This document shows, piece by piece, positions 38,238 to 55,749 of a stretch of DNA of 64,000 nucleotides. This DNA comes from an uncultured bacterium (GTDB lineage Bacteria; Verrucomicrobiota; Lentisphaeria; Victivallales; UBA1829): positions 3,771 to 67,770 of the forward strand of contig CACWOL010000006.1 in NCBI GenBank assembly GCA_902762495.1, written 5' to 3'. Made by a program: the position numbers and the translations under genes. Numbering within the stretch: position 1 is the stretch's first letter; each line of letters starts with the position of its first letter. Under the pieces are notes generated by a model that had not been told where the DNA came from, made no database searches, and was given only the letters and a program-made list of their open reading frames with translations.

Positions 38238-39056
38238 ATGAAAAATGTCATTCCTTTGATCGTAGCCGTTTTACTCGGACTTGCGGCAGTCTATGTGGTG
38301 AGCCACTTTTTGATCGAGAACAAAAGTTCGGAGCAGGAAACGCAAGTGTCCGTCGTGGTCGCGGCCCGCGACCTTGAAGCGGGCGAGGAACTTCTGCCGG
38401 GCGCATGTTCTTTCAAAAACGTGCCGGAATCGGCTGTCCCCCAGTCCGCGATCATGTGGGAGAGCGTCAGCCTGACCTACGGCCAGAAGATTCCGCACGC
38501 GATCAAACGCGGCAATTACGTCCTGTTCGAGGATATTCAGCTGAACCTTTCCCTCGCGGACTGCGTTGCTTCCGGCAAATGGCTGATCCCGGTGACGTTC
38601 TCCGATCCGACCCTCGTGAAAATGCTGAAGCCCCAGGACGAGATCGCAATCGCGGCCGCCTATACCCACTCCGAGGTCATCAAGCCGAAACTTTCAACGG
38701 AGGAACTGCTCGAAAACCCGGAAGAAGCTGAGAAGGCGGACGTGCAGATGGAACGTGAAACGGTCATCCTCTTCCCCTGCATCGAGGTGATTGGCATCGA
38801 CAACAGCAACGGCCTCTTCCGCGAATCGGGAAACTCGACCGCCACGATCTACGTTTCCCTGCCGCCACGGCAGGCGACGATCCTGCTGGCAGCCCAGCAG
38901 GAAGCGGAACTCTATCCGATCCTCCGCAGAAGAAACGATCCGTCCGCGCGGAGCCGTGCGGAAATCGGCTCCGTGAACAAGAAAACATTCGAAAACGTGC
39001 GTTCCGGTCTGGATACGACAGTGCTTCCGAACGAAAACACAACCACCTCGAACTGA
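38238..39056 (+). CDS. cpaB: Flp pilus assembly protein CpaB/RcpC (SAF domain)
   Basis: N-terminal TM, VVVAARDLEAGEEL (SAF), LKPQDEIAI, C-terminal LYPILRRRND. Confidence 0.85.
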   Translation: MKNVIPLIVAVLLGLAAVYVVSHFLIENKSSEQETQVSVVVAARDLEAGEELLPGACSFKNVPESAVPQSAIMWESVSLTYGQKIPHAIKRGNYVLFEDIQLNLSLADCVASGKWLIPVTFSDPTLVKMLKPQDEIAIAAAYTHSEVIKPKLSTEELLENPEEAEKADVQMERETVILFPCIEVIGIDNSNGLFRESGNSTATIYVSLPPRQATILLAAQQEAELYPILRRRNDPSARSRAEIGSVNKKTFENVRSGLDTTVLPNENTTTSN

Positions 39057-39069
39057 ACGGCGGTAAAGT

Positions 39070-40746
39070 ATGAAAAAACTGAAGACAGTTATTCTTTCTC
39101 TGGCAATCGCGGCCCTGCCTCTTCCCGGCATGGCGCAGGCGGTTCAGCAACCATCCGCTATCCCGGCCCAGCAGGAACAACCGGGCGAGACTCAAATATC
39201 CCAGGAAGATCTCGCGAAGGCGATCACTCAGGCTCTGATCCAACAGGGGGATTCCGCCGATCAGGGCATGATGCAGGAACAGGTCTCCATTACCGTCGGC
39301 GAAAAACGCGTGCTGAACGTGCCGTTTTCCATCGAATCCTGCAAGTCGGATTCGTCGAACATCAAAATCGAACGGGTTACCGGCAGCACGTTCGAGATAT
39401 CCGGGGCTTCCCCCGGCCAGGCCGTCATCACCGTCCATGCGGGCGGCCTCGAAAAGGAATATCATGTCACGGTGTACAACTCCACGCTTCAGACGTATCA
39501 GGAACTCAGCCGTCTGCTTGAGGAGCTTCCCGAAATCACGCTGCAGATGTACGACGGCGGACTGGTCCTCCGCGGCATCGTGACGCAGCCCATCCACTGG
39601 GATTATTTCCGCCGTATCATGCAGTCCTACGAGAACAGATGCGACAACTACGTCTCCTTCATCCCGGACACGAAACTGATCAACGACCTGAAAAAACAGC
39701 TGGCGGATGCCGGATTCCCCGTGGAGGAAAAATCCGGGCCCGAATATCCCGGCAAACTGACCATGAACCTGACCGGGACCGTTCTGACCGTGCGGGGTTA
39801 TCTGTATTCCGAGCAGGGCATTCAGACGGTCCAGTCCATTCTTTCCGCGCAGCGCTGGCTGAATCCGGAATGGAACGCGAACAACGTCACGCTCCAAACC
39901 GACCTGAGGATCACGCCTGCCCAGATCGACCTCGGGGTCGTGTTCGTCGGCGTGAAGCGGACTCAGCTGGAACGTCTCGGGAACGCCTCGGCGGATGGCA
40001 CGGTCCTGACCTGGGATGTTGCCAACTGGTTCAAGGCCCTGTACGGCGGCACCATGGATGCGATCAACAGTCACGGCAGCCAGCACGCGGGTACTTCAGT
40101 TACGCTCAAAACGAACCTGAAAGGATCGTTGGTGTTCTTCGGGCAGAACGGGGTCTCCGATTTCCGCGACGCCGGGCATATCACGCTCACAAGCAACGGC
40201 GGGGAATCCTCTTTCGAGAATGGCGGCACGCGCCAGGTAAAGGTGTACGGGGAGAATTCTGCCGACCTGAAGGAAATCGAATTCGGCCTGAAGTACAAGG
40301 CACAGGCGTTTCTCCAGGAGGACAACACGGTCAAGCTGGACCTCGAACTGGAACGGAGCCTGCCTCCGGTCCGGGACGACAATGACTATGTCCAGAGCAA
40401 GAGCAAGACGAAAACATCCCTGATCTGTCCGCTCGGACAAACCGCCATCATAGCAGGCCAGAAGGAAATGACGTTCAACCACTCCGGTCCGGGCGGCTAT
40501 GCGTTCCTTCGGCATATCCCGGTCATCAACTGGTTCGCCTCTTCCTCGGAGGAAAAGGGCGAAGAAAACCAGATCCTCATCCTTGTATCTCCCGAACTGA
40601 TGCATCAGGACACGCAGATGTCCACCCGTCCGTCCGAGGAGAACGCCTCGCTGGAGCAGGAAGTTTCCGAGCGGGTCAACGAGGAAAATCAGAAAGTTCT
40701 GGATAACGAACAGAAAACGTGGTTCCAGCGGATGTTCACGTGGTGA
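39070..40746 (+). CDS. cpaC: Tad secretin CpaC/RcpA-like
   Basis: Signal peptide; pilus-assembly N-domain; C-terminal secretin motifs (LRHIPVINWF, ILILVSPELM). Confidence 0.78.
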   Translation: MKKLKTVILSLAIAALPLPGMAQAVQQPSAIPAQQEQPGETQISQEDLAKAITQALIQQGDSADQGMMQEQVSITVGEKRVLNVPFSIESCKSDSSNIKIERVTGSTFEISGASPGQAVITVHAGGLEKEYHVTVYNSTLQTYQELSRLLEELPEITLQMYDGGLVLRGIVTQPIHWDYFRRIMQSYENRCDNYVSFIPDTKLINDLKKQLADAGFPVEEKSGPEYPGKLTMNLTGTVLTVRGYLYSEQGIQTVQSILSAQRWLNPEWNANNVTLQTDLRITPAQIDLGVVFVGVKRTQLERLGNASADGTVLTWDVANWFKALYGGTMDAINSHGSQHAGTSVTLKTNLKGSLVFFGQNGVSDFRDAGHITLTSNGGESSFENGGTRQVKVYGENSADLKEIEFGLKYKAQAFLQEDNTVKLDLELERSLPPVRDDNDYVQSKSKTKTSLICPLGQTAIIAGQKEMTFNHSGPGGYAFLRHIPVINWFASSSEEKGEENQILILVSPELMHQDTQMSTRPSEENASLEQEVSERVNEENQKVLDNEQKTWFQRMFTW

Positions 40747-40753
40747 CTCAGCC

Positions 40754-42442
40754 ATGAAACTTATCTTCACAAACGAAAAACGATCCATCGATCTTCCGGC
40801 CGGCTGCCGTCTGGTCATCGGACGGCAGGAGGACGCCGACATCCGAATCCCGGACAAACGCGTTTCTCGCCGCCACGCCGAAATCACGGAAGAGAACGGG
40901 AATGTGTTCGTCCGGGACTTGGGAAGCCATGCCGGAACGAAGAAAAACGGCGTCGGTATTACGGATAAAACGCAGCTGGCCGCGGGTGACGTCCTGAAGA
41001 TCGCCGACTTCGAATTCATGGTCAGACCGAATTCTTCTGTCACCTCGAACAGCGTGCCGCTCGCGCCTCAACAGCAGGCAATGCCGCCGATGGATGCGAT
41101 TCCGGGAAACGAAGGCCACACGCTTCCCCTCTACACGGCTCAGGCGGATCAGGAGAGTCTTTTTACGGAAAGCATGATGCAGTTGTCGAAACGCGTCCAG
41201 ACACGCGTGCTGGAACTGCTCAACGTGAGCAATGAGAAGCAGAACAACCTTTCCAACGCGGCCATGCGTCCGCAGGTGGAGTCCGCCCTGGACCAGATCC
41301 TCCGGGAAATCCGGCATGAGATTCCCCCGGATGTGAACATTGACCTGCTCCGGCAAACGCTGATGGACAACCTGATCGGCCTCGGTCCGCTTTCCCCGCT
41401 TCTGCGCGACACGTCCATTTCCGAGATCATGATCAACGGTCCGGAACATATTTTCATTGAAAGCAAAGGCCTGCAGTACCGGACCCCGTCCAAATTCCAC
41501 AGCGAGGCGCATCTGCAGTCGATCATCCAGCGAATCGTGGAGCCGCTGGGACGTCATATCGACGCGGCGTCCCCGATGGTAGACGCCCGACTCAAGGACG
41601 GTTCCCGCGTGAACGCGGTCATTCCCCCGCTCGCGCTCGACGGTTCCCTGGTCACGATCCGCAAATTCCCGTCGAAGAAGCTGACCTCGGACGATCTGGA
41701 GAAATTCGGAAGCCTGACGCACGCCATGACGCTTTTTTTGAAGGAGGCGGTCCGCGCCCGCAGAAACATCCTGGTCTCCGGCGGCACGGGATCCGGCAAG
41801 ACGACGCTCCTGAACATCCTTTCGCTGTTCATCCCCGAAAAGGAACGCATCATCACGGTCGAGGACTCGGCGGAACTGAAGCTGACGCACGAAAACCTCT
41901 GCCGGCTGGAAGCGCGCCCCGCAAACGTCGAGGGCCAGGGCCGGATCACGATTCGAGATCTGGTCATCAACACGCTCCGTATGCGTCCCGACCGGATCAT
42001 CGTCGGCGAATGCCGCGGCCCGGAGGCGCTTGACATGCTTCAGGCGATGAACACAGGCCACGACGGCTCCATGACGACCTGCCACGCGAACACGCCGCGC
42101 GACGCGCTGTCCCGTCTGGAAAACATGGTCATGATGGCCGGATTCGAGCTGCCGTCCACCGCGATCCGCGAACAGATCGCCTCGGCGATCCACCTGATCG
42201 TCCAGCAGACCCGTCTGCCGGACGGCTCGCGCAAGATCGTGAAGATCAGCGAGGTCACCGGCCGCGAAAACGGCATCATCCTGATGCAGGACATCTTCAA
42301 CTTCGAACAGGAAGGGTTCGACGAGAAATTCCATGTCATCGGGCACCATACGGCGACCGGCAACATCCCGCGTTTTATCGATGAACTTCGGCAGTCCGGC
42401 GACCTGCAGCTGGACATGTCGGTATTCGTACCGGAGAGCTGA
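40754..42442 (+). CDS. cpaF: TadA/CpaF assembly ATPase with an N-terminal FHA domain
   Basis: FHA: IGRQED..VSRRHAEI..VRDLGS; ATPase: SGGTGSGKTT, VEDSAEL, MRPDRIIVGECRG, TCHAN. Confidence 0.93.
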   Translation: MKLIFTNEKRSIDLPAGCRLVIGRQEDADIRIPDKRVSRRHAEITEENGNVFVRDLGSHAGTKKNGVGITDKTQLAAGDVLKIADFEFMVRPNSSVTSNSVPLAPQQQAMPPMDAIPGNEGHTLPLYTAQADQESLFTESMMQLSKRVQTRVLELLNVSNEKQNNLSNAAMRPQVESALDQILREIRHEIPPDVNIDLLRQTLMDNLIGLGPLSPLLRDTSISEIMINGPEHIFIESKGLQYRTPSKFHSEAHLQSIIQRIVEPLGRHIDAASPMVDARLKDGSRVNAVIPPLALDGSLVTIRKFPSKKLTSDDLEKFGSLTHAMTLFLKEAVRARRNILVSGGTGSGKTTLLNILSLFIPEKERIITVEDSAELKLTHENLCRLEARPANVEGQGRITIRDLVINTLRMRPDRIIVGECRGPEALDMLQAMNTGHDGSMTTCHANTPRDALSRLENMVMMAGFELPSTAIREQIASAIHLIVQQTRLPDGSRKIVKISEVTGRENGIILMQDIFNFEQEGFDEKFHVIGHHTATGNIPRFIDELRQSGDLQLDMSVFVPES

Positions 42443-42448
42443 GGCGAC

Positions 42449-43345
42449 ATGGATCTTCCCATTTTACAGAAATTCGGTATCTGCCTGCTGGTCTTCGCCG
42501 CGGTCTTCCTGCTGATCTTCCTGTCGGTCGGAATGGTCCAGGGGATCAGCATGGAGCATTATGACCACAAGGTGAAGGACAAGACCGCCGGGGGACACCG
42601 CAACGACATCGGATATTTCGTCGCGCCCAGGGTCCTGCTTCAGATTCAGATCTCGATCGGCACGCTTCTGATGGCGCTCATCGTCGCGATCCTGCTGTTC
42701 TGCAAGGTGTTCATGATCTATGTGCTGGTCCCGGTCAGCCTGCTGGCGCTCGGCCTCGGATTCGTGCTGCCGGTCCTGTATTATTCCCGCAAAGTGAAGA
42801 AACGCGCAAGCGATTTCGAGGGCAGTATCCTCGACCTCTCCATGGGACTGACCAGCGGACTTCGCGCCGGACAGGCCTTGCCGCAGGCGCTGGAAGTCTT
42901 TGCCCGGCGCAGCGAGGGGACGCTCAAGGAGGAACTGGATATCGTCCTGCGGGAATACCGGCTCGGCGTGGAGCTGCCGGATGCGCTTCAGCGCATGTAC
43001 GACCGTCTGCCCTGCGAGGATTTGCAGCTCCTGATCGTGTCGATCCGCCTGACGCTGCAATCGGGCGGAAGTCTGGCGGACGTCCTCCAGCGCATCACGC
43101 AGACGATCCGCGGTCGAATCGAGTTCCAGCAGAAACTGAGGGCGCTGACGGCGCAGGGCCGGTTCGAGGCGCTCGCCATGTCCCTGGCGCCCCTGCTGGC
43201 GTTCGTGCTTCTGTTCGTCATCAACAACGACCTGATGCTGCCGATGGTGCAGACGCTGATCGGATGGTGCGCCATCGGGGTCATGCTGACGCTGGAAACC
43301 ATTGGTTATTTCGTAATCCGGGCAATCGTGGATGTGAAGGTGTAA
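42449..43345 (+). CDS. tadB: TadB (T2SS F family)
   Basis: GLRAGQALPQAL, LQSGGSLADVL, LTAQGR, three TM segments. Confidence 0.88.
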   Translation: MDLPILQKFGICLLVFAAVFLLIFLSVGMVQGISMEHYDHKVKDKTAGGHRNDIGYFVAPRVLLQIQISIGTLLMALIVAILLFCKVFMIYVLVPVSLLALGLGFVLPVLYYSRKVKKRASDFEGSILDLSMGLTSGLRAGQALPQALEVFARRSEGTLKEELDIVLREYRLGVELPDALQRMYDRLPCEDLQLLIVSIRLTLQSGGSLADVLQRITQTIRGRIEFQQKLRALTAQGRFEALAMSLAPLLAFVLLFVINNDLMLPMVQTLIGWCAIGVMLTLETIGYFVIRAIVDVKV

Positions 43346-43346
43346 C

Positions 43347-44255
43347 ATGAACCCTACAACTATTTATCTGCTTACATTTCTTGCGGTGCTCATGCCGTTT
43401 ATGGTGTACGTCCTGTTTGCGAACAACACCCCGGCATCGAACGCAAAAAGGAAACAGGAGGAGGAAGATCTTCCCTCGCTGTTCCGGTTCTGCCTGACCC
43501 CGGCAAAAATCATGGATGCGATCGGGATCGGCAGCCTGATCCACAGGCTGTTCCCCGCGCAATGCCGCGCCATGCGGAAGAAGCTCCAGTATGCTGGGCT
43601 GAACGTATCCCCTGAATTTATTTATCAGACGCGGGTGTTCCTGATGTTCCTGCTGGGGGCGCTGGGCGCGTTGGGCGCGTGGATGGTAGTCGAGCCCGAC
43701 CAGCAGGGCGCCATTCCGGTCGCCGGACTGATCGGTGCTTTCATCGGCTGGTTCCTGCCCGGCACCACAGTCGGAAATCTGGTTCAGACACGCCAGACGA
43801 AGATTCTTCAGGCGATCCCGTTTTCCATCGACCTGATCTCGTCGGCGATGCGCGGCGGACTGGACTTCAGCGCGGCGATCCGTTTCTACGTGACGCTGGG
43901 GGTTGGTGGTCCGCTGACAGATGAATACAGGACCATGCTCCGGGAAATGGAGCTCGGCGTGATTCGCACGGTCGCGCTTCAGAACATGGCGGAACGAATC
44001 CAGCTCAAGGAGTTCACGTCGTTCGCCTCCGCCGTCGTGATGGGGACCGAACTCGGCGCTTCGCTGGCGGAAACGATGGAGATCCAGAGCGAGGAAATGC
44101 GGAAACTCCGGTTCTCCATCGCCGAATGCAAAGCGCAGCGCGCGCCCTCGCTGATGCTGCTCCCGATGGCGCTTTTCATCCTTCCGGCAGTGTTCATCAT
44201 CATCCTTACTCCGGTCTTTCTGAAAATGAAGGAATCGGGCGTTCCGTTGTTCTGA
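43347..44255 (+). CDS. tadC: TadC (T2SS F family)
   Basis: DLISSAMRGGLDF, ELGASLAETM, KAQRAPSLMLLPM..FILP. Confidence 0.88.
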   Translation: MNPTTIYLLTFLAVLMPFMVYVLFANNTPASNAKRKQEEEDLPSLFRFCLTPAKIMDAIGIGSLIHRLFPAQCRAMRKKLQYAGLNVSPEFIYQTRVFLMFLLGALGALGAWMVVEPDQQGAIPVAGLIGAFIGWFLPGTTVGNLVQTRQTKILQAIPFSIDLISSAMRGGLDFSAAIRFYVTLGVGGPLTDEYRTMLREMELGVIRTVALQNMAERIQLKEFTSFASAVVMGTELGASLAETMEIQSEEMRKLRFSIAECKAQRAPSLMLLPMALFILPAVFIIILTPVFLKMKESGVPLF

Positions 44256-44264
44256 GGAGCTGAA

Positions 44265-45749: not shown

Positions 45750-48097
45750 CTCTTTTCCATTCAAAAAAACAACAGAACGAACCGGAAGACAATGGACGGA
45801 AACCCCGGAAACGGGGCATCGGTTGTTGTCTTGAAATCCGCTGCCGCGGCAAACTGGTCCAGACGCTTCTGCTGGACGATCCGGACAAGGACCTGACTAT
45901 CGGACGGGCGGAAGACAACGATCTGGTCATCCCGAAGGACGACCGCTCCTGCGGAGAGCATCACGCGAAACTGCGCATCGTCCAGAACGGCGTGAAGTTG
46001 ACCGCGTGTGAAAAGAACCGGATCCATTTCCACGGGGAAAGCGTTTCCTCGACCGTTCTGAAGAAGAACGACCGGGCTTCCATCGGCGATTCCGAGATCT
46101 TTGTCCAATCGACCTCGGAAGCCGCATTCGCTCCCTGCGACGTGCATCGACTGGAAACCCACGGCGGCGAACGGAACGGCGAAATGATCCGCCTGGAAAA
46201 AAGCCCGTTCAAAATCGGGTCCGCGGCGGACAACGATCTGGTCCTGAAATCCGACGTCGTATCCAGGCATCACGCTGAGATCAGGATCGCGGACAACGGC
46301 GAGACCTGGCTGCGGGACATGGGGAGCTCCAACGGCACGTTCGTCAACGGGGAACGGCTGAAGCGTCAGGAACGCATGCTGATGGATCTGGACGAGATAT
46401 CCTTCGCCTGTTTCGATTATGCTTTCCTCGACAAAAATGTCGTGCATACGCGGACTCATTTCGGGAAAAAGATCCTGATCCTGGTATTTACGCTGTTCGT
46501 AGCCGCGGGCGTTTTCGGGCTGTATTACATGATGTCGCCGAAAACGGAGACCGTGATCGACGTGATCGACTATTACCTGAGACAGAACAATTACGACGCT
46601 GCGAAACGCATCCTGAACAGGATGCCTGATTCCAAAGGCTTCCAGCGCTATAAAAAACAATTCACGGACTATGCCTCCAGCATCCCGAATTACGAAAACA
46701 CCTACAATGCCCTTCTTTCATTCCGTAATGAATTGAAGGAGACCCAGTGGAACACCGCCGCGGAGAGTTTCGGGAAACTCGAACTGGAGAATCCCGATGC
46801 GTGGAATCAGGCGGATCCCCAGACGCCCGTCATCCAGCATCAGATCCAGGAGGAAAAGAAGTTGCTGGATACCCAGCTTTCCTTGCGCAATATGGCGACC
46901 TCCCTGGATACGACCGTCGACGAACTGAAGGCAAAATGGAAGGAGATGCAGCCCCTGCAGACACGCCTGAAGGACGAGCTGGAGGCTGAGCCGGCAACGG
47001 TCCCGGATTATCTGCAGCCGCTCTATCAGGCAATCCTGCATCAATTGTCGGATCTGGAGAATGACTGCGGTCTGCTTCAAAAGATCGAATCGAAACTGAA
47101 CGATCTGTCCGATAGCGGAGATTTGAAGCAGATCACCGACCTCGTCGATTTCCTGACGAACGATGACAGCGATATTTCCGGTATCCTCAAAGTTTACAAG
47201 CGCGACCTGCTGAACAGGATGAAAATCATCCGGGGCAACCTCGAATCGCTGGATGAAAACGATCAGGCGCTGTTCGACCTGCGGCTGGACGAGCTTCGCG
47301 TCGTCAAACTCATTTCCTCGGACGACTGCGTCATGATCCCGCAGCTGTATAGACTCCGGGAACACATGGGGGAGCGTCTTCTGGCACAGTTCCGCGGACG
47401 GGACCAGTGGCGGGGGCTTCAGGAGTCTCTCGCAATCTATCGTCTCGAACCGGGCAAAATCCCCGAAGAGATCGCGATCTTTTCCAACGAAGCACTGCTG
47501 GAACGCGTCTTTTCGCTTTCCGATCTCTCCCCGTCAGGGACCAGGTCCGTTTCGGCGGAATACGAAAAGCTCTTCGGAGAACGTTATTTCTACGAGATCC
47601 TGCAGCAGACGGTCCATTCCTCCAACAACCTTTACGCGTCCGATCTGCTCCCGGACATTCAGTACATCCCGCAGTGCATCATGCTGAAGGACATGTACCA
47701 GAAGGTCTTCGGCGCTCTGCTCTGGTGCAATCTGCCGCAGAACGAGTGGATGATGCACGGCAAGATCCAAAAGACGAAAGAGTATTACCAGGCGATCATG
47801 AATACGCGGAAATACGTCCTGAACGCCTGCTCGAACATTGCCGCCCGGCACAAAAACAACCGGCAGTATTTCCTCGCGAAAACGGCGTATTTCTTCTTTG
47901 CCCCGGGCGGACCGGACGTCCCGGCGCAGATGCAGGCGTTCGGCGAGGAATGGCGCAAATTCCGCATGGAACAGCAGAACTACATCTACTCGTACGATCC
48001 GATGGACGAAGCGAAGGCGGCGCAGATCAAGGAGTATGCGATCAAGAACGGCATCCCCGGCGATCCGCTTTTCAACTGGGTCAGGAGTCTGGACTGA
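45746..48097 (+). CDS. Membrane protein with two FHA domains and a long helical extracytoplasmic region
   Basis: IGRAEDNDLVI..EHHAKL; IGSAADNDLVL..VSRHHAEI..RDMGSSNGTFVNG; TM KKILILVFTLFVAAGVFGLYY. Confidence 0.78.
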   Translation: MTLFHSKKQQNEPEDNGRKPRKRGIGCCLEIRCRGKLVQTLLLDDPDKDLTIGRAEDNDLVIPKDDRSCGEHHAKLRIVQNGVKLTACEKNRIHFHGESVSSTVLKKNDRASIGDSEIFVQSTSEAAFAPCDVHRLETHGGERNGEMIRLEKSPFKIGSAADNDLVLKSDVVSRHHAEIRIADNGETWLRDMGSSNGTFVNGERLKRQERMLMDLDEISFACFDYAFLDKNVVHTRTHFGKKILILVFTLFVAAGVFGLYYMMSPKTETVIDVIDYYLRQNNYDAAKRILNRMPDSKGFQRYKKQFTDYASSIPNYENTYNALLSFRNELKETQWNTAAESFGKLELENPDAWNQADPQTPVIQHQIQEEKKLLDTQLSLRNMATSLDTTVDELKAKWKEMQPLQTRLKDELEAEPATVPDYLQPLYQAILHQLSDLENDCGLLQKIESKLNDLSDSGDLKQITDLVDFLTNDDSDISGILKVYKRDLLNRMKIIRGNLESLDENDQALFDLRLDELRVVKLISSDDCVMIPQLYRLREHMGERLLAQFRGRDQWRGLQESLAIYRLEPGKIPEEIAIFSNEALLERVFSLSDLSPSGTRSVSAEYEKLFGERYFYEILQQTVHSSNNLYASDLLPDIQYIPQCIMLKDMYQKVFGALLWCNLPQNEWMMHGKIQKTKEYYQAIMNTRKYVLNACSNIAARHKNNRQYFLAKTAYFFFAPGGPDVPAQMQAFGEEWRKFRMEQQNYIYSYDPMDEAKAAQIKEYAIKNGIPGDPLFNWVRSLD

Positions 48098-48291
48098 TGA
48101 TGAGACGGATCAAACATGCCGTCCTTCTGGAGTACACCCTCCTCGTGTGCTCCATCCTGCCGCTGGTCTTCGCCACGTCGGCCGCCGTCTATTCCGGCAA
48201 CCTGTTTTCCGGCGGGTTCGGGGCGATCGGAAAGTCCGTCGTGTATCTGTACCAGAGGATCGTAACCGTCATTTCCCTGCCCATCCCGTGA
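48097..48291 (+). CDS. 64-aa Flp-like pilin with His at -1
   Basis: MMRRIKH|AVLLEYTLLVCSILPLVF; overlaps both neighbouring genes; not isolated in the ORF track. Confidence 0.65.
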   Translation: MMRRIKHAVLLEYTLLVCSILPLVFATSAAVYSGNLFSGGFGAIGKSVVYLYQRIVTVISLPIP

Positions 48292-49121
48292 AGCTCCCGA
48301 TCCCCGACATCCCGAACGATCCCGGCGATCCGCTGGACTGGCTGTGCCGCGCCGACAAGCTGGGGTTTCTGCTCAGTCCGGTTGACGGGTCTTTGGAGGA
48401 GTTCCGGTCTAAAGTCGAGGAGATGCGGCAGGAACTCCACTTTGAGCTTCCCGCGGGCGAACCCGAACTGCCGCCGGACGCGGCGGAACTTCCGCCCGGC
48501 ATCCGCGAGAAGGCGGAACAGATCGTATTCGATTTGTACGGTATCCGTCCGTCCTGGGTCCTGGCGTATCTCTCCACGCGGGAAACGGGGCGCTTTTCCG
48601 CAGGCGTCACGGCCATTTATCTGACAGATGAGGGACCGTGGGCCCCAGTTATCTTCCTGTCCGGGGCGTTCCGGACGAAGACCCGCTGTCGCGGCTATGA
48701 CGCCGCCGAAACGCTCGCCCACGAAATGGTCCATGCGGTCCGGGCGGATTTCCCTTCCGAGGCGTATGACGAGTATTTCCCCTGCCAGGTGCATAAATCG
48801 CGTTTCCGCCGCGCGGCCGGAAACTTCTTCCGCAAGTGGTACATCCCCGTCCTGTTCTTCTGCGGCCTGACGTTCTCGGTCCTGCGTCCGGAGTTCCTGA
48901 TCCTTCCGCTTCTGGTCTTGCTCCGGGAACTCCAGCTGTCGGCGCGCATCCGGTCGGCGGCAGACAAAGTGCGTGAAATCGGCCTGCGTCCGATGCCGGT
49001 CCTGCTGCGGCTCTCCGACAAAGAAATCAAGATGCTGGCGCGGGGAAAACTCCCCGCCTGCCTGTCGGAATCCGGATCACTCCGCCGGGATCTCTTTTTC
49101 CGGCGTTTCCAGGCACGATAA
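48288..49121 (+). CDS. Putative membrane-anchored zinc metalloprotein (HExxH)
   Basis: GTG start overlapping the upstream TGA; AETLAHEMVHAVR; C-terminal hydrophobic segment. Confidence 0.6.
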   Translation: MKLPIPDIPNDPGDPLDWLCRADKLGFLLSPVDGSLEEFRSKVEEMRQELHFELPAGEPELPPDAAELPPGIREKAEQIVFDLYGIRPSWVLAYLSTRETGRFSAGVTAIYLTDEGPWAPVIFLSGAFRTKTRCRGYDAAETLAHEMVHAVRADFPSEAYDEYFPCQVHKSRFRRAAGNFFRKWYIPVLFFCGLTFSVLRPEFLILPLLVLLRELQLSARIRSAADKVREIGLRPMPVLLRLSDKEIKMLARGKLPACLSESGSLRRDLFFRRFQAR

Positions 49122-49973
49122 GGGCACGTCGGGCAGCAGAAGGGAATCCAATTCATCCAAAACGGCATCCGCGTCGGGAGGCCGGTTTCCGGGCTCCGGT
49201 TCCGCCATCCAGCCGAGCAACCGGACGAAATCCAGCGTGGCGAACGGCTGCAGATCGCGCATCAGGCTCTCCGGGCGGCTTTCCCGGATGAGTGCCCCCG
49301 TCTCCTTCAATCCGACGCGCGGGAAACGCGGCTGTCCGGTCAGCAGTTCATAGATCATGGATGACAAACTGAAGAAATCCGTCCGGGCGTCGGCTTTTGT
49401 TGTATCGAGCGTTTGTTCCGGGGACATCGCGGACGGCGTACCGAACACATCGGGCCCTTTTTCCGGGAAGCCTTCCATGCGGGCGATTCCGAAGTCGCCG
49501 AGCCGGATCTCTCCGTCGTCCGCAATCCAGATGTTGCCTGACTTGATATCCCGGTGAACGATCCCGTTCCGGTGCAGTTCCCGCAGGGCGTACAGGACTT
49601 CCTTCATCACATGGACGACCTGGGCGAACTGCAGCTTGCCCTCGCGTTTCATCCGGGCGGAAAGCGATCCGCCGGAAGCGTATTCCAGCTCCACAACGAA
49701 AAACCGTCCGGCGTTGCCGGTCCCCAGAACACGGATCAGCGACCGGCACTCCGAATGTATCATGAACTCCGCCAGCGCGGGCGCCATGGCCGCGTTGCGA
49801 TGGTCGTCCCGGATGAATTTCAGGATGGCCGGCGCGTTCCGTTTTCTGTCGAACACAAACCAGACTTCCTGCCGTGAGTCACGGATGCGTCGCGCCGCCT
49901 GAAGGACGCAGTCCCCGACGATCTCGCTGGGGAAGAATGACGGAGCGCACCCGCCTTCCACGTCGTCCGTCAT
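49077..49973 (-). CDS. Soluble Hanks-type Ser/Thr protein kinase
   Basis: AILK, HRDIKSGN, DFG, FGTPSAMSPE, DFFSL; ATG overlaps the stop of the second cpaF; Gly-rich loop not evident. Confidence 0.85.
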   Translation of the reverse strand: MTDDVEGGCAPSFFPSEIVGDCVLQAARRIRDSRQEVWFVFDRKRNAPAILKFIRDDHRNAAMAPALAEFMIHSECRSLIRVLGTGNAGRFFVVELEYASGGSLSARMKREGKLQFAQVVHVMKEVLYALRELHRNGIVHRDIKSGNIWIADDGEIRLGDFGIARMEGFPEKGPDVFGTPSAMSPEQTLDTTKADARTDFFSLSSMIYELLTGQPRFPRVGLKETGALIRESRPESLMRDLQPFATLDFVRLLGWMAEPEPGNRPPDADAVLDELDSLLLPDVPLSCLETPEKEIPAE

Positions 49974-51046
49974 GGGTATTCCGGCAGCTCGATGCCCATG
50001 ATCTTCGCGTCCTCGGCGAACGTGGGCTTTTCTCCGAGCATGAACCGTCCGGTGACGGTCCCGTCGGGCGCGATGGAGTCCGTGTGCCACTTCATCAGCG
50101 TGCGCGTGCGGTATTCGCCGTGTTCCAGCGGCATGATCTCCGCGATCTCCACGGTCTTGCGGGAGCCGTCCGGCAGGCGCATGGTGTGGACCACGCAGTT
50201 GATGGCGGACGCCACCTGCATGCGCAGGGCGGTCAGAGGCAGTTCGATCCCGCTCATGATGGCGCAGGTCTCCATGCGGCTCAGCGCGTCGATTGGCGTG
50301 TTCGCGTGGATGGTGGACATGGACCCGGAGTGGCCGGTGTTCATGGCCTGGAGCAGGTCGAGCGCCTCGCCGCCGCGGATTTCGCCGATGACCAGGCGGT
50401 CGGGACGCAGACGCAGGGACGCGATCACGAGGTCGCGGATAGAGAATTCGCCCTGGCCGTTCTTGTCCGGCTTGCGCGTCTCGAAATACACGCAGTGTTT
50501 CTGCTGGAGCTGAAGCTCGCTGGCGTCCTCCAGCACGAGGATGCGGTCTTTTTCGGGGATCAGGCCGCTGATGGCGTTCAGCACGGACGTCTTGCCGGAG
50601 GACGTGCCGCCGGAGACGATGGTGTTTTTCCGCAGTTTCACGATGGCGTTCAGGAGCAGCACGCCTTCGTGCGGGATGCTGCCGAAACTCTCCAGCTTCT
50701 GAATGGTCAGCATATCCTTTTTGAACTTGCGGATGGAGATGATCGTGCCGCAGCGGCTGATAGGCGGAATCGTGGCGTGGACGCGCGAACCGTCCGGGAG
50801 GCGAGCGTCGAGGTCGGGGTGCATTTCGTCGAGCTGGCGGTCCACCGACTTGGCGATGTTCACGGCGGCGGCCTTCAGCTGGGACTCGCTGGCGAACTTC
50901 GCGTCGGTCTCCTCCAGCTTGCCGCCGCGTTCGATATAGATCTGGTTCGGACCGTTGATCAGGATTTCCGAAACCCTGTCGTCGTCCAGGTATTCCTTGA
51001 CGGGCGCCAGGAACAGTACCAGAAAAGATGCGTCGTTGTTGTTCAT
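49970..51046 (-). CDS. cpaF: Second TadA/CpaF ATPase (no FHA)
   Basis: SGGTSSGKTS, LEDASEL, LRPDRLVIGEIRG, TIHAN; start set at ATG 51046. Confidence 0.92.
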   Translation of the reverse strand: MNNNDASFLVLFLAPVKEYLDDDRVSEILINGPNQIYIERGGKLEETDAKFASESQLKAAAVNIAKSVDRQLDEMHPDLDARLPDGSRVHATIPPISRCGTIISIRKFKKDMLTIQKLESFGSIPHEGVLLLNAIVKLRKNTIVSGGTSSGKTSVLNAISGLIPEKDRILVLEDASELQLQQKHCVYFETRKPDKNGQGEFSIRDLVIASLRLRPDRLVIGEIRGGEALDLLQAMNTGHSGSMSTIHANTPIDALSRMETCAIMSGIELPLTALRMQVASAINCVVHTMRLPDGSRKTVEIAEIMPLEHGEYRTRTLMKWHTDSIAPDGTVTGRFMLGEKPTFAEDAKIMGIELPEYP

Positions 51047-51489
51047 TCCAATTCCACTCCGGGGTTGACGATTTTTTCTCTGCGGTAGGCAAAACCGGTC
51101 GAGCCGGTGTCGATCTTCCAAAGCATCAGCGTCAGTTCAAGTTCAGCTTTCCGGAACGTCAGGAGCACGCGCGGGGACAGCTTGTCGTCCAGCGTGATCT
51201 GGTTTTCCGGCGACCACCCGTCGTGCAGCAGCGCCGCGGTGATCTTCGTCCGGGTGGAGATGAAGTTCGAGGCGGTCTCTCCCTCAAATTCCCAGCCGTC
51301 AGTGCCGACCTCGTTCTTCTTTTCGTCCGGCAGCTTCAGTGCGGGCAGGATGCCTTTGACGGCCTCCGTCTTTCGCGGCTGAGGACGGGGCGGTTCCGGT
51401 TTCCGTGCTGCATGTTTCAGCATCAGGAACCCCGTGCCGCACAGGAACACCAGCAGGAAGACCAGAAAGAACGGCATCAGACGCTTCAT
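51043..51489 (-). CDS. Membrane-anchored hypothetical protein in the tad operon
   Basis: N-terminal TM; overlaps flanking genes. Confidence 0.6.
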   Translation of the reverse strand: MKRLMPFFLVFLLVFLCGTGFLMLKHAARKPEPPRPQPRKTEAVKGILPALKLPDEKKNEVGTDGWEFEGETASNFISTRTKITAALLHDGWSPENQITLDDKLSPRVLLTFRKAELELTLMLWKIDTGSTGFAYRREKIVNPGVELE

Positions 51490-52187
51490 TTTTCCGGCTC
51501 GCTCCAGTCTTCATATGTGTCATAGCGTTCGTAGAAGTCGATCTTCTTCGGCTCCTTTTCTTCTTCCTTCTTGTCGTCCTTGTATTTGGCGTTGTCCATC
51601 AGCTTCAGCTCCCACTTGGAGGGATACTTGTCCTCTTTCGCCTCGAATTTCCAGATGTCCCTGTCGGCGATCAGGCTCGGATGCCAGTGGCGTTTCGCCG
51701 TCTTGGATCCCTTCGTGCGCATGATGATGCACTGCGTATACTTGTTGCCGAAGCGGGACGAGGACATCGAAAGTTCCGGGAGCATCTCCCAGGGCGATTT
51801 CGACTGGCCGCTCATCGTGTACGGCGCGTCCATCCAGTTCGAAATGTAGTCAGGGCGCGTCTGCATAATCGTGATCTTCGACGCGATGAACTGGATGTAG
51901 CTGTGTTCCTCCTCCAGGCGCCGCGCCGCGTTCGTCGAGACCAGCGTGGAGCGCGGGAACATATTCCGGAGTGCGACCATGGCGGGCGTGCGCACCTGGA
52001 ACCGGTTGCCCTCGCTCCAGACCGACCAGTGGTCCGCGGAACGCAGGTTGATCGCGTCCAGTGACTTCATGCCGATCCACAGGACGCCGCCCATGACGGC
52101 GATGTAGACCGGCAGGACCAGCACGAATTCCATCAGGACCGAGCCGCGGCACGTTCGATTTGCTTTTTTAATGTCCCAGATAGTCAC
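51486..52187 (-). CDS. TadE-like minor pilin
   Basis: CRG|SVLMEFVLVLPVY. Confidence 0.75.
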   Translation of the reverse strand: MTIWDIKKANRTCRGSVLMEFVLVLPVYIAVMGGVLWIGMKSLDAINLRSADHWSVWSEGNRFQVRTPAMVALRNMFPRSTLVSTNAARRLEEEHSYIQFIASKITIMQTRPDYISNWMDAPYTMSGQSKSPWEMLPELSMSSSRFGNKYTQCIIMRTKGSKTAKRHWHPSLIADRDIWKFEAKEDKYPSKWELKLMDNAKYKDDKKEEEKEPKKIDFYERYDTYEDWSEPEK

Positions 52188-53907
52188 GGAGTTTTTCCCA
52201 GTTCAGTTTCTGTTCGGCGTTCTTGCCGCCGCCGTTCTTGTTATCCTCGGCGATAAGGCCTCCCGGCGGCTTGAGCTTTTCCCAGTCGGGCAGCTTCTTC
52301 TGGTCGACGTCCTTGCCTTTCGCATCGACCCAGCCCTTCTTGTCGAGCATGACTTCCTTCAGGATATTGCCGCCGGTCGGGGCGAAGGTCTGAGCCTTGC
52401 CGACGCCGGCACAGAGATCCCAGGCATGCTTCACGGGCAGCATCACGCCGTCCCAGTCGGTCTCCACCAGGTTCCATTCCTTTTCGCGGCTTTCCTTCAC
52501 GTACCCGATGTTGTAATCGGAGCTCTTCATCTTCGCTTCCTTGTCCTTGTTGTACGTCTTGTAGCCCGCGCGGGCGGTCGCGATGGCGCACATGTACTCG
52601 GGGCGGTTCCCGTTCGCCACGCTCGGATTGAACGCGGAGAGGATGCCGGATGCCGTCAGCGACTGCGGATTCGAAAGGATGCCGTCGAACTTCGCCAGAG
52701 GATTGGCCGTTTTCCGCACGATCGCGACCGTGATGGTCCCGCTCTTGCCGAAGAAGGTCGGCAGAAGCGTGATCGGAATCGCGGGCGTAACGACCAGGCC
52801 GATTGGCATATTCTCTTTGATGAGCGGAAAGTCGGTCCCCTTGATTTTGGGGTGGCCGCGTTTCCAGCCGCCGGAGCCGCGCGCGACAGGCGGCAGATGG
52901 AGAGAGACCGTCCAAATCTGAACGTGACGCCATTTGGTCCAGAACCAGTCCCATTCCGCATACAGGACTTTCTTCTGCTGCTGGTACACGCGCCAGAAGC
53001 CGACGGGCGATTTCTGTTTCATCCAGACGTCCGTCCCCCGGCCGAACACGTCCTTCGGCTTGAAACTCTTCAGCGTCGGGTCGGCAAACGCGATGAAAGT
53101 CTGCTCGTTGTCCGCGGTTCCCGGCATGGTGAGGAAGCTCAGATTGATGTCGCCCATGTGAACTTTCACATAATAATCGTCCTTGCATTCCATCATGTTC
53201 GCGATGGCGATCTGCTGGGCGGTTTCCTTGACCTTTTTCTGGTATTCGTCCCTCAGATTGACGAGCTTCTTCGTCATCTTGATGATGTTGTAGCTGTATG
53301 TCATCACCTTCGGCAGGTTTGTGACAGTGCCTTTCCCCTTGATGTTCGCCTCGGCGATATGATAGGTCTGGTTGAGCAGGAATCTCGACAGCATTCCCTG
53401 TCCGTTGAACTCCTTTGCTACAAGCGGGAGGCCGACGCCTGTTCCAGCGAGTTTGAGAACGCTGTCATTGACGAGTTCGTCCGTTCCGCAGTTGAAATTC
53501 AAGCCCGGTGCATGCATATGGCACGGGCTATTCTCCGAGACGCACGTCGCAAAATCTTTGGAGAATTTGGCGAAGACCGTAGCGCAGAACGTATCCATCG
53601 CCAGGTCGAGCGAACGTTTCTGCAGGTCCACGTAGGTCCATGCCATCGCCTTGTTCACCGTCGCCATCCGGCTGAGGTAGTCCGCCTGGACCACCGAGGC
53701 GGAATAAGCCGCCGCGTCCGCCGCGTTCTGGAGCTCGATCTTGTTCCGCACCACCTCGCCGACGCCGTAGATTCCGATCACCATCAGGTAGATCGGCATG
53801 ACGAACGACAGCGTGACGGCGAGCGCCGCGCCGGAATTCCCCTTCGCCAGCTCGTTGCTCCGGGCTTTGAATACGCCCCACATGCTTGTCGGAAGTTTGT
53901 TCGCCAT
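52168..53907 (-). CDS. TadG-like large minor pilin / tip protein
   Basis: NSG|AALAV..; ELQNAADAAAYSAS Tad N-domain; long unique C-terminus. Confidence 0.75.
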   Translation of the reverse strand: MANKLPTSMWGVFKARSNELAKGNSGAALAVTLSFVMPIYLMVIGIYGVGEVVRNKIELQNAADAAAYSASVVQADYLSRMATVNKAMAWTYVDLQKRSLDLAMDTFCATVFAKFSKDFATCVSENSPCHMHAPGLNFNCGTDELVNDSVLKLAGTGVGLPLVAKEFNGQGMLSRFLLNQTYHIAEANIKGKGTVTNLPKVMTYSYNIIKMTKKLVNLRDEYQKKVKETAQQIAIANMMECKDDYYVKVHMGDINLSFLTMPGTADNEQTFIAFADPTLKSFKPKDVFGRGTDVWMKQKSPVGFWRVYQQQKKVLYAEWDWFWTKWRHVQIWTVSLHLPPVARGSGGWKRGHPKIKGTDFPLIKENMPIGLVVTPAIPITLLPTFFGKSGTITVAIVRKTANPLAKFDGILSNPQSLTASGILSAFNPSVANGNRPEYMCAIATARAGYKTYNKDKEAKMKSSDYNIGYVKESREKEWNLVETDWDGVMLPVKHAWDLCAGVGKAQTFAPTGGNILKEVMLDKKGWVDAKGKDVDQKKLPDWEKLKPPGGLIAEDNKNGGGKNAEQKLNWEKLRDYLGH

Positions 53908-53909
53908 GT

Positions 53910-54578
53910 TCAGAAAACGTCCAGTGGATATGCTTTCGTCCCGTAGGGGATGTTGACCACGCTCGTCGAACTAAGCTCGATATACGGGATCTTCAGGTCT
54001 TTTTCCGGCTCGACTGTCTGAGGATCGTCCGCGAGCAGAGCCGGGTTCAGCGCGTACGCCTGGTCGTCGAGTTTCTTCTGCCAGTCCTTGTCCTTCTTGT
54101 TCGGGTTCGAGAAGAACGCAATCAGAGGCCCCGCGACCGGAACGTTCAGGAACATTTTGAACTTGACCGTGCAGCGCACCCCGGACGGATCGATGTCCAC
54201 CAGCGGGATGTCGACGGACACCTGTTTCTCCAGGTATTTCGTGTCGGGCAGATACCCCCAGCCGTCCAGCTTGCAGTATTCGTCTTTCGTCCGATCGTCC
54301 TTGCCGCCTTTGCCGTTTGCGACGGGCGACGCGGAGACGACCGCGAGGATGCGTTTGACGACCTTTTCCGCCTGGGACTGCCGCTGAATATTGTTCGTCA
54401 CCATGGACGAACGCGCCCCCATGTAGGCGGCGTAATGGACCACCTGCCACGTGATCATGATCTGCGCCAGCTGCATGGCAAAGAGGAACAGCACGAGCAG
54501 GATCGGAAAGCAGAGCACGAATTCCAGCAGGACCGCGCCCTTGCGTTCTTTCAGGAATGTTTCTCTTCGTCTGAGCAT
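53910..54578 (-). CDS. tadE: TadE minor pilin
   Basis: RKG|AVLLEFVLCFPILL..YAAYMGAR. Confidence 0.8.
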   Translation of the reverse strand: MLRRRETFLKERKGAVLLEFVLCFPILLVLFLFAMQLAQIMITWQVVHYAAYMGARSSMVTNNIQRQSQAEKVVKRILAVVSASPVANGKGGKDDRTKDEYCKLDGWGYLPDTKYLEKQVSVDIPLVDIDPSGVRCTVKFKMFLNVPVAGPLIAFFSNPNKKDKDWQKKLDDQAYALNPALLADDPQTVEPEKDLKIPYIELSSTSVVNIPYGTKAYPLDVF

Positions 54579-54590
54579 CGCCGCGCCTCG

Positions 54591-55154
54591 TCAAACCATA
54601 TAAGCCAGCTGGATCAGCAGATTGCACCACAGCCCCGCCGCGATCGCCACGCCGAACGGGACCCGGCATGCTTCCGTGTCCTTCGGGGGCATCGACTTCC
54701 GCCCCTCGGCGCGGTCGTACCGCCAGTCGAAGATGCAGCGCAGGTAATGCTTCAGCCGTGCCGTGTTCACCCATTTCATCGCAAGCATCACCACGGCCAG
54801 GATGATCCCCGCGAAGGAGATCAGCAGAAGCAGATTCAGCGTGTTGATCAGCGAATCGCTTGCGACGCCCGGTCCCGCCGTCAGACCTGCCGCGAACATC
54901 ATCTTCACGTCGCCCGCCCCCGCCGCACGCAGATAGAACGGCAGCAGCATGAACAGCGAGGACAGAAACGCCACGGTCAGGGACATTAGCAGATAGTCCA
55001 GCCCGGCGGCGAGAGCGACCGCCGCCATGACCGCCGCACCGCCGAAGGTCAGGCGGTTCGGCAGTTCATGCCGTCTGCAGTCGCACACCGAGAGCCAGAT
55101 CAGCCACGGCGTCGCAAGCGCCAGTTTGATGAGAATCAGGTTCGTGGTGTTCAT
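54591..55154 (-). CDS. cpaA: Prepilin peptidase CpaA/TadV (A24 family)
   Basis: CDCRRHELPN and GAGDVKM aspartate motifs; VPFGVAI; start set at ATG 55154. Confidence 0.88.
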   Translation of the reverse strand: MNTTNLILIKLALATPWLIWLSVCDCRRHELPNRLTFGGAAVMAAVALAAGLDYLLMSLTVAFLSSLFMLLPFYLRAAGAGDVKMMFAAGLTAGPGVASDSLINTLNLLLLISFAGIILAVVMLAMKWVNTARLKHYLRCIFDWRYDRAEGRKSMPPKDTEACRVPFGVAIAAGLWCNLLIQLAYMV

Positions 55155-55155
55155 G

Positions 55156-55203
55156 AAAAAAAAGAAAAAGGACAGGAACTGGGCGTTTGCGTCATTCCTG
55201 TCC
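55156..55203 (-). terminator. Terminator/attenuator between the flp genes and cpaA
   Basis: GGACAGGAA/TTCCTGTCC stem followed by a U-rich tract on the minus strand. Confidence 0.65.
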
Positions 55204-55230
55204 GGATCGTGCTGAAAAGCCGCCAACTCC

Positions 55231-55479
55231 TTATTGGTAGTTGTGCATGTTCTTTTCGTGCTCTTCGGCTTTCTTGATGTCGTCCTTGGCGTTCTGCTGG
55301 TTATTCTTCTGATAATCCGCAGCACCCTTGGCGTCGGTCATGGATCTCGTCGCCACGTTCATTTCTCTGGAAACGTTCTTGCCGAACATGATCACGGCCA
55401 CGACGACCGCCGCGGCGATCAGGACTGCGATGATGACGTATTCCATCATCACTGCATGTTTTTTTCTGACAGTCAGCAT
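55231..55479 (-). CDS. flp: Flp major pilin 2 (His at -1)
   Basis: KKH|AVMMEYVIIAVLIAAAVVVAVIMFG. Confidence 0.85.
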   Translation of the reverse strand: MLTVRKKHAVMMEYVIIAVLIAAAVVVAVIMFGKNVSREMNVATRSMTDAKGAADYQKNNQQNAKDDIKKAEEHEKNMHNYQ

Positions 55480-55497
55480 GGTAACGGGCTTGCCTCC

Positions 55498-55749
55498 TTA
55501 TTGATAGTTGTGCATGTTCTTTTCGTGTTCGTTTGCCTTCTTGATGTCGTCCGCGGTGCCCTGCTTGACTTCCTTCTGAGCGGTCTCAGCGCCCTTGGCG
55601 TCGGTCATGGACTTGGTCGCCACGTTCATTTCTTTGGAAACGTTCTTGCCGAACATAATCACAGCCACGACGACTGCCGCGGCGATCAGGACTGCGATGA
55701 TGACGTATTCCATCATGACGGCGTGTTTTTTCTGGGTCTTGCTCTTCAT
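55498..55749 (-). CDS. flp: Flp major pilin 1 (His at -1)
   Basis: QKKH|AVMMEYVIIAVLIAAAVVVAVIMFG; GGAGG RBS; tandem paralog of pilin 2. Confidence 0.85.
   Translation of the reverse strand: MKSKTQKKHAVMMEYVIIAVLIAAAVVVAVIMFGKNVSKEMNVATKSMTDAKGAETAQKEVKQGTADDIKKANEHEKNMHNYQ

Follow-up and report, generated by a model that had tools for sequence, protein, structure and literature searches.

An FHA-rich Tad pilus locus with two CpaF-family ATPases and a linked Hanks-type kinase in a Victivallales bacterium

We analysed a 64-kb stretch of DNA (the window) from a Lentisphaeria/Victivallales bacterium and found in it, by open reading frame listing, translation and codon-position G+C content, 18 consecutive genes at 38238-55749 that form two convergent operons. 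The plus-strand operon encodes an envelope conduit, a platform, a motor and membrane proteins with FHA (forkhead-associated) domains, and the minus-strand operon encodes pilins, a prepilin peptidase, tip pilins, a second ATPase and a protein kinase. Gene junctions are tight or overlapping, and the last genes of the two, which encode a protein with an HExxH motif and the kinase, respectively, share 45 bp at their 3' ends. The original prediction made from this DNA had listed these genes with coordinates, and all those listed were recovered at their positions. The two operons are complementary and together encode a single chromosomal Tad/Flp (type IVc) pilus machine, which belongs to the FHA-ATPase subgroup.

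FHA domains are borne by three products of the plus operon. The first is FHA-CpaF (40754-42442, plus strand; FHA 1.7e-17, T2SSE 6.3e-63), a class III CpaF and the equivalent of KilF, in which an N-terminal FHA domain (residues 21-83) is joined by a variable linker (about 95-150) to a CpaF/TadA ATPase whose core begins at about residue 200; its closest solved structure is Caulobacter CpaF (1.7e-111). The second, P494 (44265-45749, plus strand), is a bitopic protein of 494 aa with a degenerate YscD/PrgH-like FHA fold (Yop-YscD_cpl 1.8e-5; TIGR02500 SctD 6.5e-6). The third, P783 (45746-48097, plus strand), is a bitopic protein of 783 aa with tandem FHA domains (FHA 1.1e-27, in two stretches) and one transmembrane (TM) helix at about residues 239-263. 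AlphaFold2 models of P783 and P494 were built on family alignments, and Foldseek was run against the PDB. The P783 model (pLDDT 79.6) contains two FHA sandwiches, the TM helix (residues 243-263) and an all-helical C-terminal domain of ~520 aa. In the P494 model (pLDDT 80.2), an FHA domain at residues 1-104 is followed by an acidic linker that is disordered (106-147), by a long TM helix and, beyond the membrane, by a domain of ~300 aa with alpha/beta and helical parts. Foldseek matched the FHA parts alone, those of P783 being of the GarA/OdhI type and the matches of P494 including YscD (4a0e), and it gave no informative PDB match for the C-terminal domains of the two proteins, for which profile searches were equally unproductive. 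The claim of the original prediction that the ATPase and two membrane proteins carry FHA domains was thus confirmed, by profile matches and, for the membrane proteins, by models and Foldseek.

The FHA domain of CpaF is the sole one of the locus with the full Arg/Ser/His set for phosphothreonine binding, and its Gly-Arg and Ser-R-x-His residues are kept in 9 of 9 Lentisphaeria orthologues. P494 carries an invariant T-R-Y/L-A-S motif (residues 143-147) that lies just before the TM helix in an otherwise variable, disordered linker.

The kinase gene (49077-49973, minus strand; Pkinase 4.6e-32) encodes a soluble Hanks-type Ser/Thr kinase, and its ATG overlaps the stop codon of the preceding gene as ATGA. 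That gene encodes CpaF2 (49970-51046, minus strand; T2SSE 3.8e-52), a second CpaF/TadA-family ATPase, which has no FHA domain and whose Walker and His boxes, read directly from the sequence, are intact. The CpaF2 start in turn overlaps the stop of the gene for P148 (51043-51489, minus strand), again as ATGA; P148 is a protein of 148 aa with an N-terminal hydrophobic segment and without a usable match in Pfam, NCBIfam or PDB profile searches, and it has orthologues of 113-156 aa at the equivalent position in seven of the loci fetched for comparison (L001 and L083-L088; the labels L001 to L088 denote such other loci). In seven kinase orthologues the catalytic K (AILKF), HRD (HRDIKSGN), DFG or DLG, and SPE elements are conserved.

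Nine genomic contexts, including the window, were compared. Among named records, the nearest homologue of the ATPase (73% identity) comes from a 'Victivallales bacterium' and that of P783 (87%) from a 'Lentisphaeria bacterium', and full-length homologues of P783 and P494 were found only in Victivallales/Lentisphaeria records, with identities that range from 98% to 23%. At least seven further contigs contain the same genes arranged in an identical order, so the locus is not a chance assembly. Locus and kinase recur together in six other Lentisphaeria contigs (L001, L083, L085, L086, L087 and L088), of which L001 and L085-L088 have the identical convergent 18-gene layout, kinase included; P783 identity is 33-48% in the five loci where it was measured, L085-L088 among them. 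In a distant relative, L084 (24% identity), one operon encodes FHA-CpaF, TadB, TadC, an FHA protein, a protein with two FHA domains (2xFHA), a PP2C phosphatase, a weak or degenerate kinase and a second ATPase. Because neither operon of the window is complete alone and both are fused in L084, the two constitute one system, as the original prediction had held, and the conserved layouts together with the fusion make the kinase, with a phosphatase in one branch, part of it. Two independent Tad systems were considered and rejected on the same two grounds. Translationally coupled within the Tad locus, the kinase is one of its stable members; its connection with the locus, another claim of the original prediction, is borne out by its retention across relatives whose 2xFHA proteins are only 33-48% identical. 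In L087 an additional sigma-70 gene (resembling the extracytoplasmic-function type) and a second Pkinase gene lie directly upstream of cpaB (L087:246-2023).

We then built hidden Markov models for FHA domains and Hanks kinases and scanned 80 diverse CpaF loci, counting kinases within ±10 kb. FHA domains were present at 25 of the 80 loci. A Hanks kinase was found near 5 of the 25 FHA-bearing loci versus 1 of the 55 FHA-less ones (odds ratio 13.5, Fisher p=0.01; the loci are phylogenetically non-independent). At L006 and L030 the kinase lies on the same strand as the Tad genes and upstream of them. Stable kinase linkage is a distinguishing trait of the Lentisphaeria system.

As in the original prediction, neither cpaE/tadZ nor tadD was recognised in the locus. 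No TadZ/CpaE gene is present in the locus, and the deviant Walker A motif KGGxGK[ST] occurs in none of the six reading frames over the whole window; Pfam and NCBIfam profile searches of the locus proteins revealed no TadD/CpaD pilotin, and tblastn detected no PP2C in the 64-kb window.

The remaining parts are those expected of a Tad machine. CpaB/RcpC (38238-39056, plus strand), the periplasmic assembly protein equivalent to KilB, has an N-terminal TM/signal anchor and matches TIGR03177 pilus_cpaB (1.1e-20, 74 bits versus a cut-off of 71), with weak Pfam SAF and RcpC matches. The outer-membrane secretin (39070-40746, plus strand), equivalent to RcpA/CpaC/KilC, has a signal peptide and matches PF00263 over residues 373-511 (9e-11); it gave no sequence match in the PDB, and its N-terminus gave no usable Pfam, NCBIfam or PDB profile match. 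The inner-membrane platform is formed by TadB (42449-43345, plus strand; T2SSF 5e-16) and TadC (43347-44255, plus strand; T2SSF 2.6e-13). On the minus strand lie the short A24 prepilin peptidase CpaA/TadV (54591-55154; Peptidase_A24 3.2e-11), which has 187 aa, lacks a methyltransferase domain and had its start placed at MNTTN by comparison with orthologues of 174-189 aa, and three minor pilins: TadE1 (53910-54578; PF07811 5e-10), a large TadG-like protein that is a candidate for the tip (52168-53907; PF13400 1.4e-5, 25.8 bits versus a cut-off of 22.3) and the TadE-like TadE2 (51486-52187; PF07811 1.5e-4, just under the cut-off), with the prepilin motif RG|SVLMEF. The elements by which the Tad/Flp core is recognised, namely a CpaF/TadA ATPase, a TadB/TadC pair, Flp with a short A24 peptidase, CpaB with a secretin, and TadE/TadG minor pilins, are all encoded here.

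Three genes encode Flp-type pilins. Flp1 (55498-55749, minus strand; Flp_Fap 3.9e-4) and Flp2 (55231-55479, minus strand; Flp_Fap 8.5e-4) are major-pilin paralogues that arose by tandem duplication and are 86% identical; their Pfam matches are sub-threshold, and the assignment is in keeping with the x-x-x-E-Y motif, the size and the context. Flp3 (48097-48291, plus strand) is a small Flp-like pilin of 64 aa without a usable match in Pfam, NCBIfam or PDB profile searches, with the motif KH|AVLLEY, kept in seven orthologous loci and a candidate adapter pilin (compare KilK/KilO). Mature Flp hardly varies between loci, even though their other proteins share only 33-48% identity. The residue at position -1 of the cleavage site is not Gly in these pilins (KKH|AVMMEY in Flp1 and Flp2, KH|AVLLEY in Flp3; H or R in the orthologues of L083 and L085-L088). 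Gly is kept at the cleavage site of the minor pilins TadE1, TadE2 and TadG, and the Flp of the distant relative L084 (L084:11846-12067) has the canonical EQG|SMLMEY. Judged from these motifs, Flp would either be processed non-canonically or be cut behind the small residue that comes next, with Glu then at +4. By analogy with the work on the Kil 'Tip' (PMC12075869), on which the adapter-pilin and tip roles are modelled, the arrangement suggests that TadE1, TadG and TadE2 form a tip complex, with Flp3 as adapter pilin and Flp1/Flp2 as major pilin.

The gene for the HExxH protein (48288-49121, plus strand) has a GTG start that overlaps the Flp3 stop. Its product, of 277 aa, belongs to an uncharacterised family without a Pfam or meaningful PDB match in Pfam, NCBIfam and PDB profile searches; it has HExxH and Y-x-E-Y-F motifs, a C-terminal TM segment serving as membrane anchor, an apparently cytoplasmic N-domain and no signal peptide. 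Residues E141, H145, E146, H149, Y160, E162, Y163 and F164 are invariant in eight orthologues. All loci with Flp leaders of the non-Gly kind possess the gene, and L084, whose leader is the canonical Gly one, lacks it. The role of the protein might be that of a dedicated protease, for pilin processing or for regulation.

For the relationship to other systems we computed neighbour-joining trees with bootstrap on the ATPase (KilF) part of the supermatrix rows of the Kil paper; taxa were limited and support moderate (80-88%). The ATPase domain of the window is 56% identical to KilF and 47% to Caulobacter CpaF, and it is equally close (56-59%) to the ATPases of Stenotrophomonas, Thauera, Acidithiobacillus, Burkholderia and an Olavius symbiont; class III CpaFs as a whole are 54-59% identical to it over the ATPase part. 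In the first tree it was basal to the whole FHA-CpaF group and not with the predators, and in the second, which included more loci, the Lentisphaeria FHA-CpaFs were monophyletic and again basal, an 80% split setting the FHA-CpaF group apart from the alphaproteobacterial, Desulfo and second-ATPase sequences. With 100% bootstrap, a single clade united CpaF2 of the window with the second ATPases of L084-L086, L011 and L030. The trees place the window ATPase outside the Kil group of Myxococcales, Bdellovibrionales and Bradymonadales; by sequence it is a member of the broad FHA-CpaF (class III) group, at its base.

This broad group also contains many non-predatory beta- and gammaproteobacteria, and the one taxon named among the nearest FHA-CpaF cluster representatives is Kiritimatiellia. 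FHA-CpaF has already been defined as 'class III', mostly betaproteobacterial, in a 2025 study of CpaF (PMC12019362), and the window ATPase has the features that define the class, an FHA domain and a linker on a CpaF core. Of the 150 best cluster representatives (50% identity), about 25 have the full-length architecture. The statement in the original prediction that ordinary Tad loci lack FHA proteins was therefore too strong, since class III is known and FHA occurs at 25 of the 80 CpaF loci scanned.

The Kil system of Myxococcus xanthus, which is Tad-like and kills on contact (PMC8460266, PMC12075869), comprises the FHA-ATPase KilF, KilD (FHA and TPR), MXAN_3104 (FHA), MXAN_4648 (FHA and TPR) and MXAN_4649 (FHA, PrgH-like), has a single ATPase and lacks TadZ, TadD and RcpB (PMC8460266). 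We compared the window with the cluster 1 loci L003-L005 (L003 being from Citreicoccus) and with 77 diverse CpaF loci; MXAN_4648 and MXAN_4649 are not among them, and L011, from a metagenome-assembled genome (MAG) of Myxococcota whose gene order is the same, served as their proxy. The likeness in parts that the original prediction had seen was upheld. Both systems have an FHA-ATPase, a 2xFHA-TM protein with a C-terminal part that is long and helical, and a PrgH-like (YscD-type) FHA protein; both have CpaB, TadB/TadC, a short A24 peptidase, small Flp pilins and a tip set of TadE/TadG type; neither has TadZ/CpaE or TadD; and the window secretin is collinear with KilC (residues 72-537 versus 214-660 of the L005 homologue, E=7e-11, 21% identity by BLASTP). 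The KilD homologue of L003 has the same architecture as P783, with FHA1, FHA2, a predicted TM helix and a C-terminal part of ~430 residues, and P783 aligned collinearly with KilD homologues over the tandem FHA region (hhalign 98.8%, E=5e-17); no hhalign signal was obtained outside that region. In this KilD homologue (L003:11244-13466) the predicted TM helix, RGKLIMAVLGVVGLLVVGA, spans residues 289-307, after the second FHA domain, in contrast to the description of KilD as a cytoplasmic multidomain protein (PMC8460266). P494 gave an hhalign probability of 0.8% with the YscD-like protein of L011. These comparisons were not taken to show orthology of the accessory C-terminal domains with those of KilD or L011, the agreement being limited to architecture and gene order.

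The two systems also differ. The window genes lie in one locus, whereas those of Kil lie in two clusters with separate tip clusters; the window has the second, FHA-less ATPase, the dedicated Hanks kinase and the HExxH protein; and a TadG-like gene is inside the locus, whereas the Kil core clusters were first described without TadG, a TadG-like N-terminal domain being given for MXAN_4659 in the table of the Kil paper (PMC8460266). Kil-like systems have been reported only from predatory 'delta-proteobacteria' (PMC8460266, PMC12428579), whereas the host here is a bacterium of the PVC (Planctomycetes-Verrucomicrobia-Chlamydiae) group that is not a known predator, and no sign of the needleless type III secretion system (T3SS*) to which Kil is functionally coupled was seen in the window. 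As judged by sequence, the locus is a relative of Kil by parts list and not by ATPase descent; it is built, and would work, much as Kil and shares with it the broad FHA-CpaF class, but it lies outside Kil proper both by phylogeny and by having more than a single ATPase. In L011, where the order is likewise CpaF, TadB, TadC, YscD-like FHA protein, 2xFHA-TM protein and second ATPase, a kinase gene lies in the flank. L011 and L030, from Myxococcota/Deltaproteobacteria MAGs, contain FHA-CpaF, extra FHA proteins, one or more flank kinases and a CpaF2 orthologue. The two-motor layout thus exists also outside Lentisphaeria, near the Kil lineage.

Class III CpaF systems, such as that of Achromobacter xylosoxidans (CpaF E3HIW0, PMC12019362), show the same order of FHA, linker, 3HB/NTD and ATPase as the window and fall in the same broad clade, but they are mostly betaproteobacterial and have not been studied functionally (PMC12019362), and most of those fetched, unlike the window, have neither extra FHA-TM proteins nor a linked kinase. 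With the canonical Tad/Cpa systems of Caulobacter crescentus and Aggregatibacter the window shares the core of Flp, A24 peptidase, CpaB, secretin, CpaF, TadB/TadC and TadE/F/G; it differs from them in lacking CpaE/TadZ, the ParA-like ATPase for positioning, and TadD/CpaD and in having FHA on the ATPase, two ATPases and major pilins with a non-Gly -1 residue. The Kil authors invoked the threonine-phosphorylation pathway PpkA/PppA/Fha1 of type VI secretion (PMC8460266). The window resembles it in that a kinase (with PP2C in L084) and FHA proteins are encoded within the locus of an envelope nanomachine, which suggests that assembly is gated post-translationally, and differs in that the machine is unrelated, the kinase is soluble without a periplasmic sensor domain, and FHA is fused to the motor ATPase. 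The resemblance is one of mechanism, by analogy, and not of membership.

On these observations we consider it somewhat more probable than its contrary that this Tad machine is under phospho-dependent control, as the original prediction had proposed, through phosphothreonine-dependent docking or activation of the FHA-CpaF motor. In such a scheme, P494 (YscD/PrgH-like) and P783 (KilD-like) would form a cytoplasmic/inner-membrane scaffold that replaces TadZ in positioning and docking, and the target of the soluble kinase would be a threonine of the machine on the cytoplasmic side, in a juxtamembrane or linker segment; T143 of P494, in the invariant T-R-Y-A-S motif, is the best candidate. The FHA domain of CpaF would then bind the phosphothreonine and the motor would be recruited or activated, so that the pilus is extended only on a signal. 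A phosphatase encoded elsewhere would oppose the kinase and reset the switch (in L084 a PP2C is encoded in the operon), and CpaF2, lacking FHA, would probably supply an opposing or alternative motor activity such as retraction. The output is likely to be a Flp fibre with a TadE/TadG/TadE tip that would serve adhesion or cell contact. Taken as a whole, a fuller picture is doubtful: a two-motor machine switched by kinase and phosphatase, in which phosphorylated TRYAS docks the FHA domain of the extension motor, CpaF2 retracts, an FHA scaffold replaces TadZ across the class including Kil, and contact, possibly antagonism, is triggered by a signal in gut or sediment Lentisphaeria.

Several findings weigh against phospho-dependent control. 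Three of the four FHA domains are degenerate: FHA1 of P783 lacks the S/N-G loops, in FHA2 an invariant Gly-Ser replaces Gly-Arg, and the FHA domain of P494 resembles the phospho-independent YscD. Even in the FHA domain of CpaF the conserved Asn is substituted in all orthologues. The kinase lacks the Gly-rich loop in all orthologues, and the kinase-like protein of L084 reads HGD and DFS in place of HRD and DFG, by which it may be a pseudokinase and perhaps inactive. Linkage is imperfect as well, 20 of the 25 FHA-Tad loci, Kil cluster 1 among them, having no linked kinase; the enrichment described above is supportive only, because the loci do not represent independent samples. The layout of L083 is the same except that CpaF2 is missing, and in L002 neither a minus operon nor a kinase lies next to the plus operon. 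Finally, we infer the roles of P494, P783, CpaF2 and the TRYAS site from architecture only.

A second account is that of an ordinary adhesive Tad system whose FHA domains are purely structural and phospho-independent, as in YscD/PrgH of type III secretion, the kinase regulating something else, or acting at the level of transcription or another level, and being linked by operon history. The degenerate motifs of P494 and of both P783 domains, the match of P494 to YscD/SctD, the wide occurrence of FHA-CpaF in non-predators, usually without a linked kinase, the plus operon standing alone in L002 and the atypical N-lobe of the kinase all speak for this account. It does not readily explain why the kinase stays at the tail of the pilin/CpaF2 operon across deep divergence with its start overlapping the CpaF2 stop, why genes for PP2C and a kinase-like protein are flanked in L084 by those for the 2xFHA protein and the second ATPase, or why the Arg/Ser/His set of the CpaF FHA domain is kept in every orthologue, and we regard it as possible but unlikely.

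The original prediction had raised contact-dependent antagonism, and a true Kil-type machine for contact-dependent killing or prey attachment, with which this Lentisphaeria clade would antagonise or prey on its neighbours, would account for the presence of the Kil accessory set, for the tip-like TadE/TadG/TadE and small adapter-like Flp, and for an ATPase domain that is closer to KilF than to Caulobacter CpaF. We consider it quite improbable. The ATPase lies outside the predator group and equally near those of Stenotrophomonas, Thauera, Acidithiobacillus and the Olavius symbiont; there are two ATPases against the one of Kil; no homology was detected between the C-terminal domains of P783 and P494 and the corresponding domains in Kil or L011; and the window contains no T3SS*, toxin or extra tip clusters. 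Literature searches gave no report of predation in the Lentisphaeria lineage, whose cultured members are known as saccharolytic anaerobes. Nothing in the sequence points to antagonism, and a killing function is unsupported by it.

A Tad-derived machine for DNA uptake or for protein secretion like that of type II systems, in which the HExxH protein would be the cargo or a processing enzyme, is very improbable: Flp-dependent transformation is reported in Actinobacteria (PMC4322843) and the conserved HExxH protein is translationally coupled to Flp3, but neither the competence genes ComEA/ComEC nor genes for secreted substrates were recognised in the locus, and the HExxH protein has no signal peptide and is apparently membrane-anchored with its N-domain in the cytoplasm.

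FHA-type and Kil-like Tad systems were known already and the core of the locus is a familiar machine; the new elements are its dedicated kinase, its paralogous second ATPase, which is conserved, its HExxH protein and its occurrence in a PVC host. Literature searches found no description of a Tad system with an in-locus kinase or PP2C, nor of Tad in Lentisphaerae. The FHA scaffold architecture of Kil is thus also present in a PVC lineage not known as predatory, and the combination 'FHA + Tad' should not be read as a marker of predation. The in-locus kinase coupled to a second motor, the PP2C beside a kinase-like gene in the distant relative L084, and the related two-ATPase loci with a flank kinase in MAGs of Myxococcota and deltaproteobacteria depart from the Kil picture. 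The FHA proteins of Kil have been proposed to couple prey contact to assembly through unidentified phospho-signalling (PMC8460266, PMC12428579), and the present locus makes the question of what signals to them testable, being a compact, genetically defined system in which FHA control of a Tad motor, and what replaces TadZ, can be studied.

The neighbours of the locus are unrelated to it, being genes of the housekeeping or toxin kind, with GroEL, DnaK, UxuA and an SDR (short-chain dehydrogenase/reductase) protein encoded on one side and HipA on the other. The gene for the HipA-family toxin kinase (56462-57718; HipA_C 8e-54) lies immediately outside the Tad locus and is followed by a gene for an AAA_14/DUF4143 ATPase (58154-59425), the two being separated by a stretch that holds a 23-bp tandem repeat (57999-58084). 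Farther off lie a gene for Cas9 (18791-21871; RuvC_III, HNH_4 and Cas9_a domains) and, after it, a short array at 22028-22321 with a period of 66 (a repeat of ~36 nt and a spacer of 30 nt, in about five units); together they look like a type II CRISPR-Cas locus. At about 20000-30000 the G+C content is lower than elsewhere in the window (50-55% versus ~60%), and this stretch, which includes a primase/AAA_25 gene (PriCT_2, Toprim) at 25417-27639, is possibly an integrated mobile element beside the CRISPR locus.

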